A stretch of DNA of 64,000 nucleotides from Synergistaceae bacterium (GCA_017450125.1 JAFSWZ010000013.1:78282-142281); one strand, 5' to 3'. Shown: positions 6,526 to 52,942, counted from the stretch's first letter. The notes: generated by a model from the sequence alone, not told the origin. Program-made: numbers and translations.

Positions 6526-7047
6526 GTGATGAAGAAGTATCCTCCCCTCGAGATAGTTGCGCCGGTAGTGTTCGCGGTAGTGTTTGCGGTTACGCTGATA
6601 TACTCGCGGTTCGAGCCGCATGTTGAGGACGTGGACGCGTCGTACGTCAAGGCCAACACCGGGAAAGCAGGCTACGTGCTGGTTGACGTGAGGAGCGAGG
6701 AGGTTTTTGAGGGAGCGTCTCCGATGCCTGGAGTTCCTGGCGGGCACATTCCTGGAGCAGTGAACTTTCCGCTCGATGACCTGAAGATTGCGGCACCAGC
6801 GGCGGCACTGGCCAAGACGGGCATCGTGAAGGACAGGACGGTGATACTGTACTGTAACACCGGGACAGCGGCGGGGAAGTTCGCTGATGCGTTGATCCGG
6901 CACTTCAACTTTTCGCCCTCGCGCCTGAAGAACTATCGCGGCAGCATGCGGGATTGGTCAAGGTACTCGTCGAACCCTCTGTTGCCGAAAGACCACGAGA
7001 CCGGCCTTCCCGACGCAGTGAAGCCGCTGACACTCGGGGGCAAATGA
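6526..7047 (+). CDS. Rhodanese-domain sulfurtransferase with N-terminal membrane anchor
   Basis: YVLVDVRSEEVFEG, GHIPGAVNFP, active-site loop ILYCNTGTAAG. Hydrophobic N-terminus. RBS AAGGAG at 6513-6518. Confidence 0.75.
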   Translation: MMKKYPPLEIVAPVVFAVVFAVTLIYSRFEPHVEDVDASYVKANTGKAGYVLVDVRSEEVFEGASPMPGVPGGHIPGAVNFPLDDLKIAAPAAALAKTGIVKDRTVILYCNTGTAAGKFADALIRHFNFSPSRLKNYRGSMRDWSRYSSNPLLPKDHETGLPDAVKPLTLGGK

Positions 7048-7078
7048 CGGATAATAATTATCGGGAGATGATTCGTAA

Positions 7079-8215
7079 TTGGCAGTACCAATCTTAGACC
7101 TAAAGCGTTCGTTCAGTGAGATAAAGCCGGAAGTTTCTGCGGCGGTAGAGAGAGTGTTTGCCTCGCAGGGATTTATTCTCGGGCGTGAAGTCAGTGTGTT
7201 CGAGAAGCACTGCGAGAAGTATCTCGAGATTCCAGAAGGCTCGTGTGTTGGCTGTGCGTCGGGTACAGATGCATTGCTTCTTGCTCTGATGGCCGAAGAC
7301 CTCAAGCCCGGCGACGAAGTAATCACAACGCCGTTCACGTTCTTTGCGACGGCGGGGGCGATTGCGCGTCTCGGAGGAGTGCCGGTGTTCGTGGACGTTG
7401 ACCCTGTAACGTACAACATCGACCTTCAGCAGGTGATGGACAAAGTTACGGATAGAACGAGAGTTTTTCTGCCTGTGCACTTGTTCGGACAGATGACACC
7501 GCTTGAAGAGATAATCCCCCAGCTTCACGGCAAGGGCATCAAGGTCATCGAGGACTCGGCTCAGGCTTTCGGTGCGACGCGCAACGTCAATGACGAGATT
7601 ACGCGCGCAGGATGCGTCGGTGATGTTGGGTGCTACTCGTTCTTCCCGACGAAGAATCTCGGGGGCTGCGGGGACGGCGGAATGGTAGTCTCTCGCGACA
7701 AGGACACTGCGGAACGTTTGCGCCGTCTTCGTGTTCACGGTTCAGGGACGACGTACTACCACGACGAGATAGGCATAAACAGTCGGCTTGATGCGATTCA
7801 GGCGGCAATACTGGACATCAAGCTCCGCCACCTCGACGAGTGGAACGAACAGCGCAGAAAGTCAGCCGAGTACTACAAGCTGCTGTTCAAGGCGAAGGGG
7901 CTTCATGAGTTCGTGAGCGTCCCTGAGGAACTGCCCGGCAACGTGCACATCTGGCATCAGTACGTAGTGAGGGTCAAGGAGAGGCGCGATGAGCTGATGA
8001 GCTTCCTTGAGGATAAGGGAGTGAGCGTGAGGGTGTATTATCCCCTGCCGCTGCACCTTCAGCCGTGCTTCAGGTATCTGGGTTACGCGGAAGGAAGCCT
8101 GCCGGTCAGCGAGGAGCTGTCGCGTGAGGTTATGGCCTTGCCGGTGTATCCCGGCCTGACGCAGGAGGAACAGGAAGAAGTAGTGGTGAGAATAGCAGAG
8201 TTCTTCACGAAGTAA
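7079..8215 (+). CDS. DegT/DnrJ/EryC1/StrS family PLP-dependent aminotransferase
   Basis: PILDLKR..., GFILGREVSVFE, SGTDALLLAL, PGDEVITTPFTFFATAGAI, VFVDVDPVTYNID, FFPTKNLG. TTG start preceded by GGGAGA. Confidence 0.85.
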   Translation: MAVPILDLKRSFSEIKPEVSAAVERVFASQGFILGREVSVFEKHCEKYLEIPEGSCVGCASGTDALLLALMAEDLKPGDEVITTPFTFFATAGAIARLGGVPVFVDVDPVTYNIDLQQVMDKVTDRTRVFLPVHLFGQMTPLEEIIPQLHGKGIKVIEDSAQAFGATRNVNDEITRAGCVGDVGCYSFFPTKNLGGCGDGGMVVSRDKDTAERLRRLRVHGSGTTYYHDEIGINSRLDAIQAAILDIKLRHLDEWNEQRRKSAEYYKLLFKAKGLHEFVSVPEELPGNVHIWHQYVVRVKERRDELMSFLEDKGVSVRVYYPLPLHLQPCFRYLGYAEGSLPVSEELSREVMALPVYPGLTQEEQEEVVVRIAEFFTK

Positions 8216-48397: not shown

Positions 48398-49954
48398 CTA
48401 GAACTCTATCGCTGTCCTGAACTTCACGACATTGTCTTCCCTGCTGGCCGCGCCGTTAGCATCGTTATCAGCGTGCATGTAGTTGAGACCGAGTGTCGTG
48501 TAGTCGTTGAGCTTGTACTGTACGCCTAAACCGAACTCCTTCGGGCTGACATCAGCGTTGCCCCACTCGAGCTTGTAGCCGTAGTAGAACAGGTAGGTTG
48601 ACCACTTGTCGTTCCACTCCTGGCCGAGACCGACTCTCCAGTACTTCGTATCAAACTGTATACGCCTGCCGCCATTCATGCCGTACTCTTCCTTCAGAAG
48701 GTCGCCATAGAACAGGATTCCAGTGTTGTTGCCCCAGAAACCCCTGTCATACTGGCCATACTCGAGCCACAGGCTGGTGAACTTCAGAGCCTGCTGTTTC
48801 ACATCAAGGATGGCTGCCCAGTGGTTTGCGTCATCAATGATGTTGTTGTTTGCGTCCAGCAACAAAGAGCCGGTATCCATCCACTTGAGCAACCCGTCAT
48901 TAGGGTCGCGATAGACCATCTCGGTATCCATCTCCTGATGGTAGAACACACCCTTGAAGCCGATGGCATCGTTGAAGTTAAAGCGAAGCCCGCCATACAC
49001 TGTCCAGAGGTTGTTGAAGGACACGTCGCCAATTCTGTGCTCAGTAATATCGCCGTTATTGTCAAGCCCCGTAAACTGCTCAGCATTATCACCGACGAAC
49101 ACCTGTGCTCCGAGATCGAGTCCGATCTGTTCGGTGAACTGGAGCGTAACCTGCGGCAAAATCATCCACAGATCGAACACTGTCGTCTGGCTTCCGTAAA
49201 AATTACCATTACGATCCGTTATACGACCACCGATACTCCATCTGTCGCTGGGATGTGCGAACACTACACGTGCCATGCCCAGCCCGAAGTTCTTGGTTAC
49301 GCCGAAGCCCGTCATTGTCCAGTCTGTGAGGATCTGGTCACCGTCCCAAACGCCCGTGCCGGGGAGGGAAATCTTATAGTCGCCCTCAAGAGCCCAGTTG
49401 AAACGTCCTACAGTCATCTTCGTGTCGAAGAAGAAAGGCATCTCCACGAAGAACCTGTCTAAGCGTCCATTTCCGCCCTCTTCATCGCGAAGTCTTGCCG
49501 CGAAGAAGTAATCCTCATTCTCGCCAAACCTGCGCTCGAACCAGATTCTCGCCTCATCGAAGCCTACTGAACCCTTACCGTCAGGTCCGATTGCGTCGCC
49601 AGCGTCATTACGGCTCTCATTCTGAACATCGAGCACGAGCGTTCCGTGCATGTGCCACCCGCCGAGCCTGTCTTCCAGAACAGCTACTCTCTCGTCAAGC
49701 TCGTCTACCCTTACGCCGAGTGCCTCGAGCTCGTCCTTGAACTCAACAACGAGCCTCTTGAGCATCTCTACGTCCTGCTTGCTGGCCTTCGTCATGTCTA
49801 CTACTGCGAGTGCTCTGGCAAGCGCACTGGCCATCTCGTAACGTGTCGTGGACTGCTGCCCTTTGTAGGTTCCGTCAGGATAACCCGAGAGAATCCCGTG
49901 TGCGGCCAGCTGGCCGATTGCGTCATATGCCCAGTGGTTCATCGGCACGTCCAT
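48398..49954 (-). CDS. SLH-domain OmpM-like outer-membrane porin, paralog 1 (apparently silent: no start codon ahead of its signal peptide)
   Basis: SLH domain (NHWAYDAIGQLAAHGILSGYPDGTYKG), coiled-coil stalk, beta-barrel ending ...VKFRTAIEF. The frame stays open upstream to 50035, encoding KKKLAVIAAVVAVAALAAPAFSATNPF, but begins right after an in-frame TGA with AAA where paralog 2 has ATG. The first ATG (49954) would give a protein with no signal peptide. Confidence 0.75.
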   Translation of the reverse strand: MDVPMNHWAYDAIGQLAAHGILSGYPDGTYKGQQSTTRYEMASALARALAVVDMTKASKQDVEMLKRLVVEFKDELEALGVRVDELDERVAVLEDRLGGWHMHGTLVLDVQNESRNDAGDAIGPDGKGSVGFDEARIWFERRFGENEDYFFAARLRDEEGGNGRLDRFFVEMPFFFDTKMTVGRFNWALEGDYKISLPGTGVWDGDQILTDWTMTGFGVTKNFGLGMARVVFAHPSDRWSIGGRITDRNGNFYGSQTTVFDLWMILPQVTLQFTEQIGLDLGAQVFVGDNAEQFTGLDNNGDITEHRIGDVSFNNLWTVYGGLRFNFNDAIGFKGVFYHQEMDTEMVYRDPNDGLLKWMDTGSLLLDANNNIIDDANHWAAILDVKQQALKFTSLWLEYGQYDRGFWGNNTGILFYGDLLKEEYGMNGGRRIQFDTKYWRVGLGQEWNDKWSTYLFYYGYKLEWGNADVSPKEFGLGVQYKLNDYTTLGLNYMHADNDANGAASREDNVVKFRTAIEF

Positions 49955-50015
49955 GAAAGGATTGGTCGCTGAAAACGCCGGGGCTGCAAGTGCTGCAACT
50001 GCTACAACAGCTGCT

Positions 50016-50032
50016 ATTACTGCTAATTTCTT
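50016..50032. repeat. Left copy of an exact 17-nt inverted repeat (ATTACTGCTAATTTCTT; reverse complement AAGAAATTAGCAGTAAT)
   Basis: Identical in inverted orientation to 51302-51318. Covers codons 2-7 of the paralog 1 signal-peptide frame. Confidence 0.9.
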
Positions 50033-50079
50033 TTTTCAGTACAATACACCTACAATTTTTCCACGAAGGAGAACCCGCC

Positions 50080-51009
50080 ATGATCCTAGAACCATTCTTC
50101 AGGTTTATCGATGTCTCGGAGAAAACAGAGTCCATCTACCGCAGAGCCTTGCGGCAGCTCTTCACCTACTTCACCGAACACGGAATCCTCAAGCCCTCCC
50201 GCGACGACATCATCAGCTTCCGCAGACACCTCGAACGCAAGCACCTCAAGCCCAGCACCATCGCACTATACCTCGCCGCAAGCCGCAGGTTCTTCGCCTG
50301 GACAGAACACGCCGGAATCTACCCCAACATCGCGCTCGGCGTTAAAGCCCCGAAGCCCGAGCCCGGCCACAAACGCGACTGCCTCTGCGCCGAACAGCTC
50401 CGCACAATCCTCGCCGGGATCGACCGCACAACCCCCATAGGCCGCAGAAACTTCGCCATCATCGCCCTCATGTCAGTAACCGGCCTCCGCACAATCGAGG
50501 TCTCTCGCGCAAACATCGGCGACTTCCGTAAAGTCGGCACGCACACCTGCCTGTTCGTGAGGGGCAAGGGACGGTGCACAAAGTCTGAGTTCGTGAAGGT
50601 CCCTCCCCCAGTCAGCTCAGCAATCGGCGACTACATCAGGGAACGCGGCAAAGTTCAGGAGTCCGCCCCGCTCTTTGCCTCAATGAGCCGCCGGAACACG
50701 AATGCCCGCCTCTCCGCACAAACCATCTCCAAGCTCTGCAAATCCGCAATGCGCGCAAACGGCTTCTCCTCCTCGCGCCTCACCGCGCATTCCCTCCGAC
50801 ACACCGCAATAACCTTGTCCCTATCGGCTGGCATACCACTGAGTGAGGTTCAGGCCTTCGCACGGCACAAGAACATCACCACCACAATGATCTACGCTCA
50901 CCACGTCGACCGCCTCAGAAGCCCTTGCGAGGAAGCAGTCTGCGCCGCTGTTTTCCAAAACTTTATACGTGAAATTACAGATTCGCTTGCAATTTTCAGA
51001 TGTGTGTAG
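50080..51009 (+). CDS. Tyrosine site-specific recombinase (XerC/XerD/integrase family)
   Basis: SAM-like N-domain, then TGLRTIEVSR (Arg I), HSLRHT (H-x-x-R), MIYAHH (catalytic Tyr). ATG at 50080 follows AAGGAG. ORF-track N-terminal extension trimmed. Confidence 0.85.
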   Translation: MILEPFFRFIDVSEKTESIYRRALRQLFTYFTEHGILKPSRDDIISFRRHLERKHLKPSTIALYLAASRRFFAWTEHAGIYPNIALGVKAPKPEPGHKRDCLCAEQLRTILAGIDRTTPIGRRNFAIIALMSVTGLRTIEVSRANIGDFRKVGTHTCLFVRGKGRCTKSEFVKVPPPVSSAIGDYIRERGKVQESAPLFASMSRRNTNARLSAQTISKLCKSAMRANGFSSSRLTAHSLRHTAITLSLSAGIPLSEVQAFARHKNITTTMIYAHHVDRLRSPCEEAVCAAVFQNFIREITDSLAIFRCV

Positions 51010-51015
51010 TAATAT
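50987..51015 (+). promoter_or_regulatory. Strong sigma70-like promoter TTGCAA-17 nt-TAATAT reading toward porin paralog 2
   Basis: TTGCAA (50987-92), 17-nt spacer, TAATAT (51010-15). Overlaps the recombinase stop codon. Predicts a 5' UTR of about 275-280 nt. Confidence 0.55.
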
Positions 51016-51298
51016 ACTCCGCGTGCTACGGGAAATACGTAGCGGAATATCGTCAAACCAACGCAGAACTTGTTAGCCAGAAGCAGGGAAAGGAGATGCA
51101 CGAATCCCCGTTCAAGCATTAAGGAAGAGTTCGGACGCGGAGGGCGCAGGAGGTCGGGAGTACAGCCTCTCGGACTGTCAGAGGGACAGAAAGGAAACAA
51201 GGTAACTTTCCGAACCCCCGCAGGCTCAGGGCAGTATATGGACTGAGTGCGTAAAAGGCGATAGTTGATTGACAATTTCATAAGGGGGTTTATCTGTA
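51016..51298 (+). promoter_or_regulatory. Long purine-rich 5' leader of porin paralog 2 (possibly a structured RNA)
   Basis: About 290-nt non-coding gap, the largest in the window. Local hairpins (GCTACG-GGAAATA-CGTAGC; CTCAG-13 nt-CTGAG). RBS AAGGGGG before ATG 51299. Confidence 0.45.
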
Positions 51299-52942
51299 AT
51301 GAAGAAATTAGCAGTAATGTTCTTAGCTGCAGTTCTTGCGGTGAGCGCGGTTGCTCCTGCATTCTCTGCAACTAATCCGTTTATGGACGTACCCATGAAT
51401 CACTGGGCGTACGATGCGATAGGACAGCTTGCGGCTCATGGAATACTTTCCGGCTACCCGGACGGCACGTACAAGGGTCAGCAGTCAACCACGAGGTACG
51501 AGATGGCATCAGCACTTGCGAGGGCACTTGCTGTTGTGGACATGACCAAAGCGAGCAAGCAGGATGTCGAAATGCTGAAGCGTCTTGTGGTGGAGTTCAA
51601 GGATGAGCTTGAAGCTCTGGGTGTCAGGGTTGATGAACTCGACGAGCGCGTTGCTGTTCTCGAGGATCGTCTCGGAGGATGGCACATTGAAGGTTCACTG
51701 GTGCTTGATGTCATAAACCAGAGCAGGAACAGTGCAGGCGATGCGTTTGATGGTGACGGCGAAGGCTCGGTTGGCTTCGATGAAGCAAGGTTGATCTTCG
51801 AGCGCAACTTCGGCGAGAACGACGACTACTTCTTCCGTGCGAGGCTTCGCAATGACGATACGGTTCATGCGCGCTTCGATAGGTTCTTCGTGGAGATGCC
51901 GTTCTTCTTTGACAGCAAGATGACTGTCGGACGCTTCAGCTGGGCTCTCGAAGGAGACTACAAGATTTCTCTTCCCGGCACTGGCGTGTGGGATGGCGAC
52001 CAGATCCTCACGGACTGGACGTTTGATGGCTTCGGTCTCACCAAGAACTTCGGTCTGGGTATGGCGCGTATAGCCTTCGCGCATCCTAGTAGGTATACTG
52101 CCAGTACATTGACGTATGATGCCGATGGGAACATAACGGGTTGGAGAACCACAGCATTGGACACTTGGATGATTTTGGCGCAGGCTTCCCTCCAGTTCAC
52201 CGAACAGATCGGTTTCGATATTGGCGGACAAGCATATGTAGGCGACAATGCAGAGCAATTTTCTGTGGCAGATGTCAATGGTAACCTCACTAGGCATGGT
52301 GCTGGAGACTTGTCCTTCAACAATATCTGGACAATTTACGGTGGCCTTCGCTTCAACTTCAACGACGCTATAGGCATCAAGGGTGTCTTCTACCACCAGA
52401 ACGTGGATATGGAAGAAGTCTATGTAGACGGGAATAATCGTCTCGCTTGGAGAGATCGTGGCTACTTCGGCGGCGGAGCTGGGATGATTGATGATGCCAA
52501 CCACTGGGCAGTAATTCTCGACGTGAAGCAGGCGGCTCTCAAGTACACTAGCCTGTGGCTCGAGTACGGCCAGTTCGATGAGGGCTTCTGGGGCAATAAC
52601 GGCGGAATACTGTTCTACGGCGACCTTCTTCAGCAAACCTTTGGCGGGAGCAGGGCGTACTGGGATACAAAGTACTACAGAGTCGGGCTTGGGCAGGAGT
52701 GGACCGACAAGTTCTCAACTTACCTGTTCTACTATGGATACGTCGTTGAGGATGCTATAGGAGTCTATAATGGTAATGGCGTGTTTCTTCGCACTGAGGA
52801 CGTAAAGCCCAAGGAGTACGGCATCGGTGTAAGCTACAAGCTCAATGACTACACGACGCTCGGCCTCAACTATATGCACGCTGATGACGACGTAGGCCGC
52901 GAGGACAACGTCGTGAAATTCAGGACGAAGGTAACGTTCTAG
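51299..52942 (+). CDS. SLH-domain OmpM-like outer-membrane porin, paralog 2 (expressed configuration)
   Basis: Complete signal peptide MKKLAVMFLAAVLAVSAVAPAFSA. SLH domain and coiled coil identical in protein sequence to paralog 1. Beta-barrel ending ...VKFRTKVTF. Confidence 0.85.
   Translation: MKKLAVMFLAAVLAVSAVAPAFSATNPFMDVPMNHWAYDAIGQLAAHGILSGYPDGTYKGQQSTTRYEMASALARALAVVDMTKASKQDVEMLKRLVVEFKDELEALGVRVDELDERVAVLEDRLGGWHIEGSLVLDVINQSRNSAGDAFDGDGEGSVGFDEARLIFERNFGENDDYFFRARLRNDDTVHARFDRFFVEMPFFFDSKMTVGRFSWALEGDYKISLPGTGVWDGDQILTDWTFDGFGLTKNFGLGMARIAFAHPSRYTASTLTYDADGNITGWRTTALDTWMILAQASLQFTEQIGFDIGGQAYVGDNAEQFSVADVNGNLTRHGAGDLSFNNIWTIYGGLRFNFNDAIGIKGVFYHQNVDMEEVYVDGNNRLAWRDRGYFGGGAGMIDDANHWAVILDVKQAALKYTSLWLEYGQFDEGFWGNNGGILFYGDLLQQTFGGSRAYWDTKYYRVGLGQEWTDKFSTYLFYYGYVVEDAIGVYNGNGVFLRTEDVKPKEYGIGVSYKLNDYTTLGLNYMHADDDVGREDNVVKFRTKVTF
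51302..51318. repeat. Right copy of the exact 17-nt inverted repeat (AAGAAATTAGCAGTAAT)
   Basis: Immediately follows the ATG of paralog 2. Inverted match to 50016-50032. Confidence 0.9.

Follow-up and report, generated by a model that had tools for sequence, protein, structure and literature searches.

How can two outer-membrane porin genes both remain intact when only one of them has a start codon, and why does a recombinase gene lie between them? These questions are raised by a locus in a 64,000-nucleotide stretch of DNA from a rumen Synergistaceae bacterium (GCA_017450125.1, JAFSWZ010000013.1:78282-142281), referred to here, at its full length, as the window. The locus holds two divergent genes for SLH-anchored porins of the OmpM type, porin 1 and porin 2, and a tyrosine recombinase gene (50080-51009) that is the sole gene between them. 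We consider it highly likely that this cassette is a recombinase-driven, site-specific DNA inversion switch that chooses which of the two porins is made. Our confidence that switching occurs at an appreciable frequency in present populations is lower than that.

A preliminary description of the window had reported the pair of SLH porin genes facing apart, the lone recombinase and an exact 17-nt inverted repeat at codons 2-7 of both porins, and our analysis confirmed each of these elements at the positions below. The features of the locus are as follows (RBS, ribosome-binding site; ORF, open reading frame).

48398-50035, minus strand: porin 1 (SLH/OmpM-type), OFF as oriented; intact 545-codon frame including the signal peptide
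50016-50032: left inverted repeat, ATTACTGCTAATTTCTT, at porin 1 codons 2-7; proposed crossover site
50033-51301: proposed invertible segment of 1269 bp, holding the recombinase promoter and gene and the porin promoter, leader, RBS and ATG
50040-50045, plus strand: TACAAT, likely -10 of the recombinase's own promoter, within the invertible segment
50080-51009, plus strand: tyrosine recombinase, 309 aa, presumed invertase
50987-51015, plus strand: putative porin promoter TTGCAA-17-TAATAT, which begins within the last codons of the recombinase
51016-51298, plus strand: conserved 5' leader of ~280 nt
51282-51288, plus strand: RBS AAGGGGG
51299-51301, plus strand: sole ATG, immediately inside the right repeat
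51302-51318: right inverted repeat, AAGAAATTAGCAGTAAT, at porin 2 codons 2-7
51299-52942, plus strand: porin 2 (SLH/OmpM-type, 547 aa), ON as oriented; complete ORF

The two 17-mers, ATTACTGCTAATTTCTT and AAGAAATTAGCAGTAAT, formed an exact inverted pair, and just these two copies were present in the window when up to three mismatches were allowed. The triplet on the inner side of the right repeat was the ATG, and promoter, leader and RBS were found only on the porin 2 side. By contrast, the minus-strand start region of porin 1 read TGA AAA AAG AAA TTA ..., with the in-frame TGA two codons ahead of the repeat, so that the difference drawn by the preliminary description between ATG with AAGGGGG at the right repeat and TGA AAA at the left one was borne out. 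The signal-peptide frame of porin 1 (KKLAVIAAVVAVAALAAPAFSATNPF) was uninterrupted; no ATG, GTG or TTG preceded the methionine at 49954, which lies beyond the signal peptide, and no RBS was found 5' of the signal peptide. Inversion of the segment in silico produced a complete 545-aa porin 1 with its signal peptide in frame and, as in gene-altering inversions generally, the alternative 3' parts were intact and in frame afterwards. The earlier suggestion that inversion would leave porin 2 startless held only in part: flipped porin 2 would have no RBS, no promoter and no KK n-region, but its codon 7 would be ATG (GTA ATG), created by the base that follows the repeat.

Based on this anatomy, we propose that the recombinase would pair both inverted 17-bp sites at porin codons 2-7 and that strand exchange inside these sites would flip the segment. 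In the present orientation the expression module would be fused in frame to porin 2, with porin 1 lacking promoter, RBS and start; after a flip, porin 1 would be made as MKKLAVIAAVV... and porin 2 would be left behind the 5' end of the recombinase gene without a promoter or RBS. The switch would be reversible because the recombinase and its own promoter would travel with the segment. The likely pay-off would be that the exposed face of a major tether-porin, as a phage receptor or antigen, varies while its anchoring is unchanged, since the two porins share an identical SLH domain and stalk and differ mainly in predicted surface loops.

Both orientations of the cassette occur among related lineages

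The orthologous locus was found in seven further lineages through exact-protein look-ups and homologue searches, with recombinases 64-80% identical to that of the window. Across the eight Synergistaceae lineages, all flanked alike by PSP1 at one end and by ACT and Mnh genes at the other, the cassette was window-like in two and flipped in six, and the opposite orientation that the preliminary description had suggested seeking in related genomes was thereby found in 6 of 8 lineages. In the window and L013, the window-like pair, the recombinase reads toward the full-length porin on the ACT side. In the flipped lineages (L006/L007/L010, L008/L009, L014, L015/L016, L017 and L018) it is the ACT-side or porin-2-type copy that is startless. 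L013 and L008, the latter a goat-rumen metagenome-assembled genome (MAG; JAFSSM010000056), shared with the window the gene order Peptidase_S55, Tmk, DUF327, HolB, PSP1, cassette, ACT and MnhE-G. Within this setting L008 has its recombinase gene on the other strand, a full-length porin next to PSP1 (MKKYAVIAAIV...) and a startless one next to ACT (GTA AAG AAA...). In both L006 and L008 the left-hand porin orthologue is the full-length, ATG-bearing copy. Wherever both ends of the cassette were recovered (window, L006, L008, L013 and L017), the segment was bounded by inverted repeats with the recombinase gene inside; the contigs of L014, L015/L016 and L018 hold one cassette end only. When the eight recombinases were placed on a neighbour-joining tree with a mobile-element integrase as root, the two window-like lineages were not sisters, so that at least two independent flips are required.

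The position of the exchange was seen in L017 (1553 nt). This contig carries the chimera ...GGGGGTTTATCTATAATG-AAGAAATTAGCAGTAAT-AGCAGCTGTTGTAGCAGTT..., encoding MKKLAVIAAVVAVAALAAPAFSATNPFMDVP. On the promoter side its flank matches the porin 1 flank of the window at 95.0% identity and the porin 2 flank at 71.6%; on the recombinase side it resembles the flank of porin 2 (94.9%) far more than that of porin 1 (65.3%). The bases just inside and just outside the 17-mer agree with their respective partners, which places the exchange point inside these 17 bp. Inversion had been predicted in the preliminary description to fuse promoter, leader, RBS and ATG in frame to paralog 1 (MKKLAVIAAVV...), and the N-terminus encoded by L017 is exactly MKKLAVIAAVVAVAALAAPAFSATNPFMDVP. 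For the window itself, the predicted flipped-state junctions are porin 1 flank-17-mer-CATTACAGATAAACCCCC and GAAAA-17-mer-GTTCTTAGC. On the porin 1 side the alternative junctions to be distinguished are porin 1 flank-17-mer-TTTTCAGTACAAT and porin 1 flank-17-mer-CATTACAGATAAACC, and likewise on the porin 2 side.

L017 was also a mosaic in relation to the window. Its flanks (1-135 and 1396-1553, compared with window 51302-51436 and 49875-50032) were 95% identical, and the recombinase and leader between them 78%, with a synonymous difference of 0.52 between the two cassettes. This suggests that the cassette or the porin genes were exchanged between lineages. The contrast between 95% flanks and a 78% cassette also hints at an integron-like arrangement, in which the 15-17-nt sequence after the ATG, conserved in Synergistaceae OmpM genes with or without a cassette, would be a family-wide docking site for the domesticated integrase and porin bodies or the cassette would be exchangeable between loci, even between species, and not just flipped between two resident copies, although we regard this as quite improbable.

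The porins, the recombinase and the 17-bp site

Porin 1 and porin 2 are 77% identical as proteins. Residues 24-128, which comprise the SLH domain and a helical stalk, are 100% identical, with ~68% of the codons differing synonymously; over codons 27-126, all 100 amino acids are the same and 68 codons are different, close to the 67 of 101 counted in the preliminary description. Across more than 100 Synergistaceae homologues, which share only 50-75% identity overall and are saturated at synonymous sites, the SLH domain and stalk were nearly invariant. The stretches encoding residues 24-128 of both porins (window 49650-49960 and 51375-51690) thus stand out for an unusually strong constraint on the periplasmic anchor. 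We considered selection against recombination as the cause of this combination of identity and saturated synonymous change, and rejected it in view of the family-wide near-invariance: the pattern arises because purifying selection on this region is very strong throughout the family.

Both porins carry the SLH domain (PF00395, residues 27-70). An AlphaFold2 model of porin 2 (mean pLDDT 83) predicted a periplasmic SLH domain, a helical stalk with helices to residue 124, and then a beta-barrel. Foldseek matched this model to 18-strand porins and to OmpM1 of V. parvula (8bym/8bys, E ~1e-10), and the predicted order of N-terminal SLH domain, stalk and C-terminal barrel is that of an OmpM-type tether-porin. 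By analogy with work on OmpM and Mep45 (PMC10628300, PMC5020339), the porins would be expected to bind peptidoglycan and to form the main diffusion pore. When loops were assigned by strand parity counted from the periplasmic N-terminus, porins 1 and 2 were 84% identical in the turns on the periplasmic side and 70% identical across the strands. The long L3-like loop (215-240) was the same in both (100%), and the remaining outward loops were 53% identical. All barrel indels between the two sit in an outward loop or hairpin tip. In terms of the model, these differences are consistent with an exposed surface that varies on an unchanged anchor and, probably, around an unchanged pore constriction.

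In the nine porin copies compared (5 silent, 4 active) every ORF was uninterrupted. The ratio of non-synonymous to synonymous substitution (dN/dS) was 0.05-0.20 in those pairs whose dS was unsaturated, silent-silent pairs included, many other pairs being saturated. By this measure the silent porin copies are under purifying selection; a copy that was never expressed would decay.

Searches of the recombinase against Pfam gave tyrosine recombinase domains only, namely Phage_integrase (PF00589, E=6.5e-21) and a SAM-like N-terminal core-binding domain (PF02899, E=3.4e-10; PF13495, E=6.5e-7), and no serine resolvase-type domain. Alignment to the Xer-like recombinase 4a8e placed the LRT, HxLRH and IY motifs, and the catalytic residues R137, K168, H237, R240, H263 and Y272 were invariant in the eight cassette orthologues. 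The gene is under purifying selection, as indicated by its dN/dS of 0.06-0.22. Its NCBIfam scores were below the cut-offs for XerD (103 vs 330 bits), XerC (102 vs 335) and XerA (119 vs 220), and no shufflon-recombinase family was among its NCBIfam matches. Judged by these profiles, the protein is Xer-like in fold and is no XerC/XerD orthologue; it is this particular recombinase that would presumably catalyze the inversion. Its nearest relatives outside the cassette clade (L022-L027, 54-60% identity) were integrases of ~6.5-kb elements that look circular, in that their gene order wraps the contig, each with a Toprim/DnaB_C primase-helicase, Bro-N/ANT proteins and small ORFs. Such relatives were very abundant in rumen metagenomes, with more than 5000 proteins at E<=1e-40, many of those listed coming from short contigs (1-8 kb). 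Given these relatives, the probable origin of the invertase is a mobile-element integrase that became domesticated. The 17-mer was not found in L022-L027 as an att site of these elements, with up to three mismatches allowed.

The exact 17-mer occurred in both copies in the window, L013 and L017, and in the single recovered copy of L014 and of L015/L016 (at the same left position as in the window). In L006 the right-hand copy was exact and its partner matched over 15 nt. The KKLAV codons were identical in 287 of 287 pairwise comparisons, compared with 51% same-codon use at identical residues of the invariant SLH block. The preliminary description had also presented the 17-mer as statistically exceptional. 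This claim we rejected for this genome: the argument is weak because the paralogs also share exact runs of 23, 20 and 17 nt in the barrel and, by our own arithmetic, about three runs of at least 17 nt are expected at 75% nucleotide identity. The repeat is special in where it lies and in how abruptly similarity ends on its inward side.

Competing explanations and known switches

Several observations weigh against an inversion switch, and they are gathered here. In the window species the flipped state was not found, ~7 contigs from at least 5 samples (source samples: the goat-rumen runs behind ERZ28653813, ERZ28653718, ERZ28653721 and ERZ28019071, and SRR12529378) all being window-oriented, and the L006 and L008 species likewise showed one orientation each in the assemblies seen. 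Database and cluster-member look-ups found no record of a full-length chimeric porin 1 or a truncated porin 2. Switching, if current, would be either rare or strongly biased by selection. The repeat copies of L008 (5678-5694, AAGAAATATGCAGTAAT, and 6962-6978, AAGAAATTTACAGCGAT) match at 13 of 17 positions, with AAGAAAT shared and KKLAV changed to KKYAV and KKFTA. Either AAGAAAT alone suffices for crossover or the switch is decaying in L008, a lineage that may be locked because its sites match at just these 13 positions. No dyad symmetry for recombinase binding was evident around the site. In addition, the 15-mer AAGAAATTAGCAGTA also directly follows the ATG in two single-copy porin genes, L019 and L020, with no recombinase nearby, and for this reason the nucleotide conservation of the repeat, which we had considered as evidence, is no proof of a recombination site. 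The recombinase would thus use, or has adopted, a family-wide conserved sequence that is probably kept for expression reasons. Contig breaks as evidence of mixed orientation were also mostly rejected, as they fall in conserved leader or SLH sequence common to other porin genes (49942, 49967, 51211 and the leaders of L014, L015, L016 and L018). Only contig L016, whose first base is the outermost one of the repeat, would fit an assembly-graph branch caused by inversion. When the recombinase alignment was used to scan GTDB genomes and JGI metagenomes, it returned just the two goat-rumen MAGs that had already been recovered and unrelated matches.

These points could be read as signs of a fossil switch, in which the inversions between species were rare and ancient, the cassette no longer moves in the present genome, the recombinase serves some other function or none at all, and porin 1 survives as a silent relic. 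Assemblies showing one orientation per species, repeats reduced to 13/17 in L008 and to 15 nt in L006, and the missing alternative-state protein would all agree with it. We nevertheless think it rather unlikely, for the silent copies are intact over more than 500 codons in five lineages, with a dN/dS of ~0.05-0.2 and saturated synonymous sites, the recombinase is kept by purifying selection together with its catalytic residues, at least two independent flips have occurred, and the exact 17-mer persists in both copies of the window, L013 and L017.

That the flips took place by RecA-dependent homologous recombination between the inverted 5' parts of the porin genes, as in Campylobacter fetus sap, with the recombinase a bystander from a mobile element, seems to us highly improbable. 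The porin genes do form a 737-nt inverted repeat of 75% identity beside the cassette, and the recombinase's closest non-cassette relatives (54-60%) are integrases of circular-looking ~6.5 kb elements. Against this, the breakpoints of all lineages fall in the same 17 bp, with non-homologous sequence inward and ~75% identity outward, whereas efficient RecA recombination usually needs identity longer than 17 bp; moreover, the recombinase gene is kept inside the segment in 8 of 8 lineages, under purifying selection. We give almost no credence to an artefact, in which metagenomic contigs were mis-joined and porin 1 is translated from a non-canonical start. It is true that the data are wholly metagenome-assembled and that several contigs break near the cassette. 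However, the repeat could not be collapsed in assembly because its 17 nt are shorter than assembler k-mers, separate assemblies of one species are identical at every base, and long contigs (38-315 kb) cross the whole locus in both orientations. The in-frame TGA two codons before the repeat and the lack of any ATG, GTG, TTG or RBS 5' of the porin 1 signal peptide speak against translation of porin 1 as it stands. An inversion switch is therefore the explanation we prefer.

The switch proposed here has counterparts in other bacteria. In Dichelobacter nodosus, linked variant genes for the major outer-membrane protein (OMP) Omp1 are thought to be switched by inversion (Moses et al. 1995, pmid 7476204), as outlined in later accounts (PMC4196234; cited also PMC5903667). 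The two systems are alike in their linked, structurally variant major-OMP genes and in the apparent use of site-specific inversion. They differ in gene number (four omp1 genes as opposed to two here), in the protein concerned (a classical proteobacterial OMP as opposed to an SLH-anchored tether-porin), in phylum, and in that the recombinase gene here lies inside the invertible segment. The D. nodosus sites reportedly lie near the 5' end of the coding sequence.

In Bacteroides fragilis, the tyrosine recombinase Tsr0667 carries out shufflon-type inversions of SusC/SusD genes (cited in PMC4747536 and PMC12632263). Milman et al. 2023 (PMC9881135) described gene-altering programmed inversions, in which one upstream part of a coding sequence is joined to alternative downstream parts. 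With SusC/SusD our cassette would share the action of a tyrosine recombinase on inverted repeats inside OMP coding sequences, and with the Milman et al. class it shares the architecture of one upstream expression part and alternative downstream parts. Compared with both, the shared upstream part here is just the start codon and the repeat (6-7 codons) and there are two alternatives only; the target is a general porin and tether, not a TonB-dependent transporter as in SusC/SusD. The main text of Milman et al. has no mention of porins or Synergistota (PMC9881135), and intragenic and partial invertons have been surveyed in PMC10028968. The preliminary description had regarded the mechanism class as known but was not aware of it for SLH/OmpM porins of Synergistota, and our literature search (Synergist* with OmpM/SLH and inverton/inversion) agrees, in that it turned up no such switch either in OmpM-type porins or in Synergistota.

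A single promoter on an invertible segment between opposed surface-protein homologues is also the arrangement of C. fetus sapA. Switching of sapA is RecA-dependent and involves long conserved 5' regions, as opposed to the dedicated tyrosine recombinase and 17-bp site here. In the vsa, vpma and vsp systems of mycoplasmas, silent surface-protein genes take turns at one expression site through the action of a local Xer-like tyrosine recombinase, with recombination sites in the 5' untranslated region or leader; these switches differ in serving multi-gene lipoprotein families in wall-less bacteria. High-frequency variation of Vpma in M. agalactiae occurs by Xer1 site-specific recombination (PMC5634654). 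The R64 shufflon, with its inversion-only tyrosine recombinase Rci and asymmetric sfx sites (PMC11852207), offers a further likeness. The site here may also be asymmetric, in that AAGAAAT is bordered by conserved sequence on just one of its sides, the resemblance to sfx being an analogy only. Two sites were found in the 64-kb window, compared with the three or more of a shufflon, and there was no multi-segment arrangement.

OmpM-type proteins are the main outer-membrane tether and the general porin in Terrabacteria-type diderms (PMC10628300). Because of this dual role they are abundant, probably indispensable, and exposed to phages and to recognition by hosts or predators. A switch that keeps the periplasmic anchor and swaps the barrel loops would be a way for such a constrained protein to vary, and it would extend programmed gene-altering inversions to Synergistota and to SLH-anchored porins. 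In practice, automated annotation presents the silent copy as a protein lacking its N-terminus, metagenomic contigs are prone to end near the locus, and rumen or gut Synergistaceae populations may differ internally in their major surface protein. If its activity is confirmed, the two-site, one-recombinase, 1.3-kb module could serve as a compact inversion tool.

Expression signals and single-copy relatives

The candidate porin promoter TTGCAA-17-TAATAT was found at 50987-51015, as the preliminary description had reported, although it scored 8/12 in a generic promoter and terminator scan, which gave nothing at its threshold. Conservation was assessed over seven aligned loci, those of the window, L006, L008, L013 and L017 and the single-copy L019 and L020. 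The TAATAT (51010-51015) was invariant in all seven, the -35 was retained in 6 of 7, and the -10 with its flanks, TGTAGTAATATA, was almost invariant. The leader had a mean column identity of 79%, a conservation that far exceeds that of synonymous sites in coding regions. A 5' hairpin, GCTACG-N7-CGTAGC, is predicted at 51025-51043, and the invariant GAACCCCC (51212-51219) is complementary to the RBS AAGGGGG (51282-51288), making it a possible anti-Shine-Dalgarno sequence. RNAalifold predicted helices in the leader with almost no covariation, and a search of the leader against Rfam gave no match. The leader may be an undescribed cis-regulatory or stabilizing element.

At the place of the likely recombinase -10, a TA(C/T/G/A)AAT hexamer was present in all 7 species and was preceded by TG in 4. 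The preliminary description had placed the -35 of this promoter, TTACTG, inside the repeat. We rejected this assignment because the spacing between repeat and -10 is not constant, ranging from 5 to 14 nt across species; in addition, TTACTG matches TTGACA at 2 of 6 positions. The C-terminus of the window recombinase (50962-51009) is 15 residues longer than in the seven orthologues (309 aa compared with 294-298 aa). Its ORF reads through the porin -35, with the stop codon directly ahead of the -10, so that both transcription and translation of the recombinase would extend into the porin promoter. The generic scan showed no terminator-like site separating the recombinase from porin 2.

In other Synergistaceae, the loci L019 (5001-6548) and L020 (5001-6536) each hold a single OmpM-type porin gene with the same leader and an ATG-AAGAAATTAGCAGTA start, and no recombinase. 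The L019 porin adjoins the same ACT and Mnh genes, on the other strand, and is followed by ~1.2 kb (6549-7744) in which no gene is called. Such single-copy loci may represent the state before duplication of the porin and capture of the recombinase.

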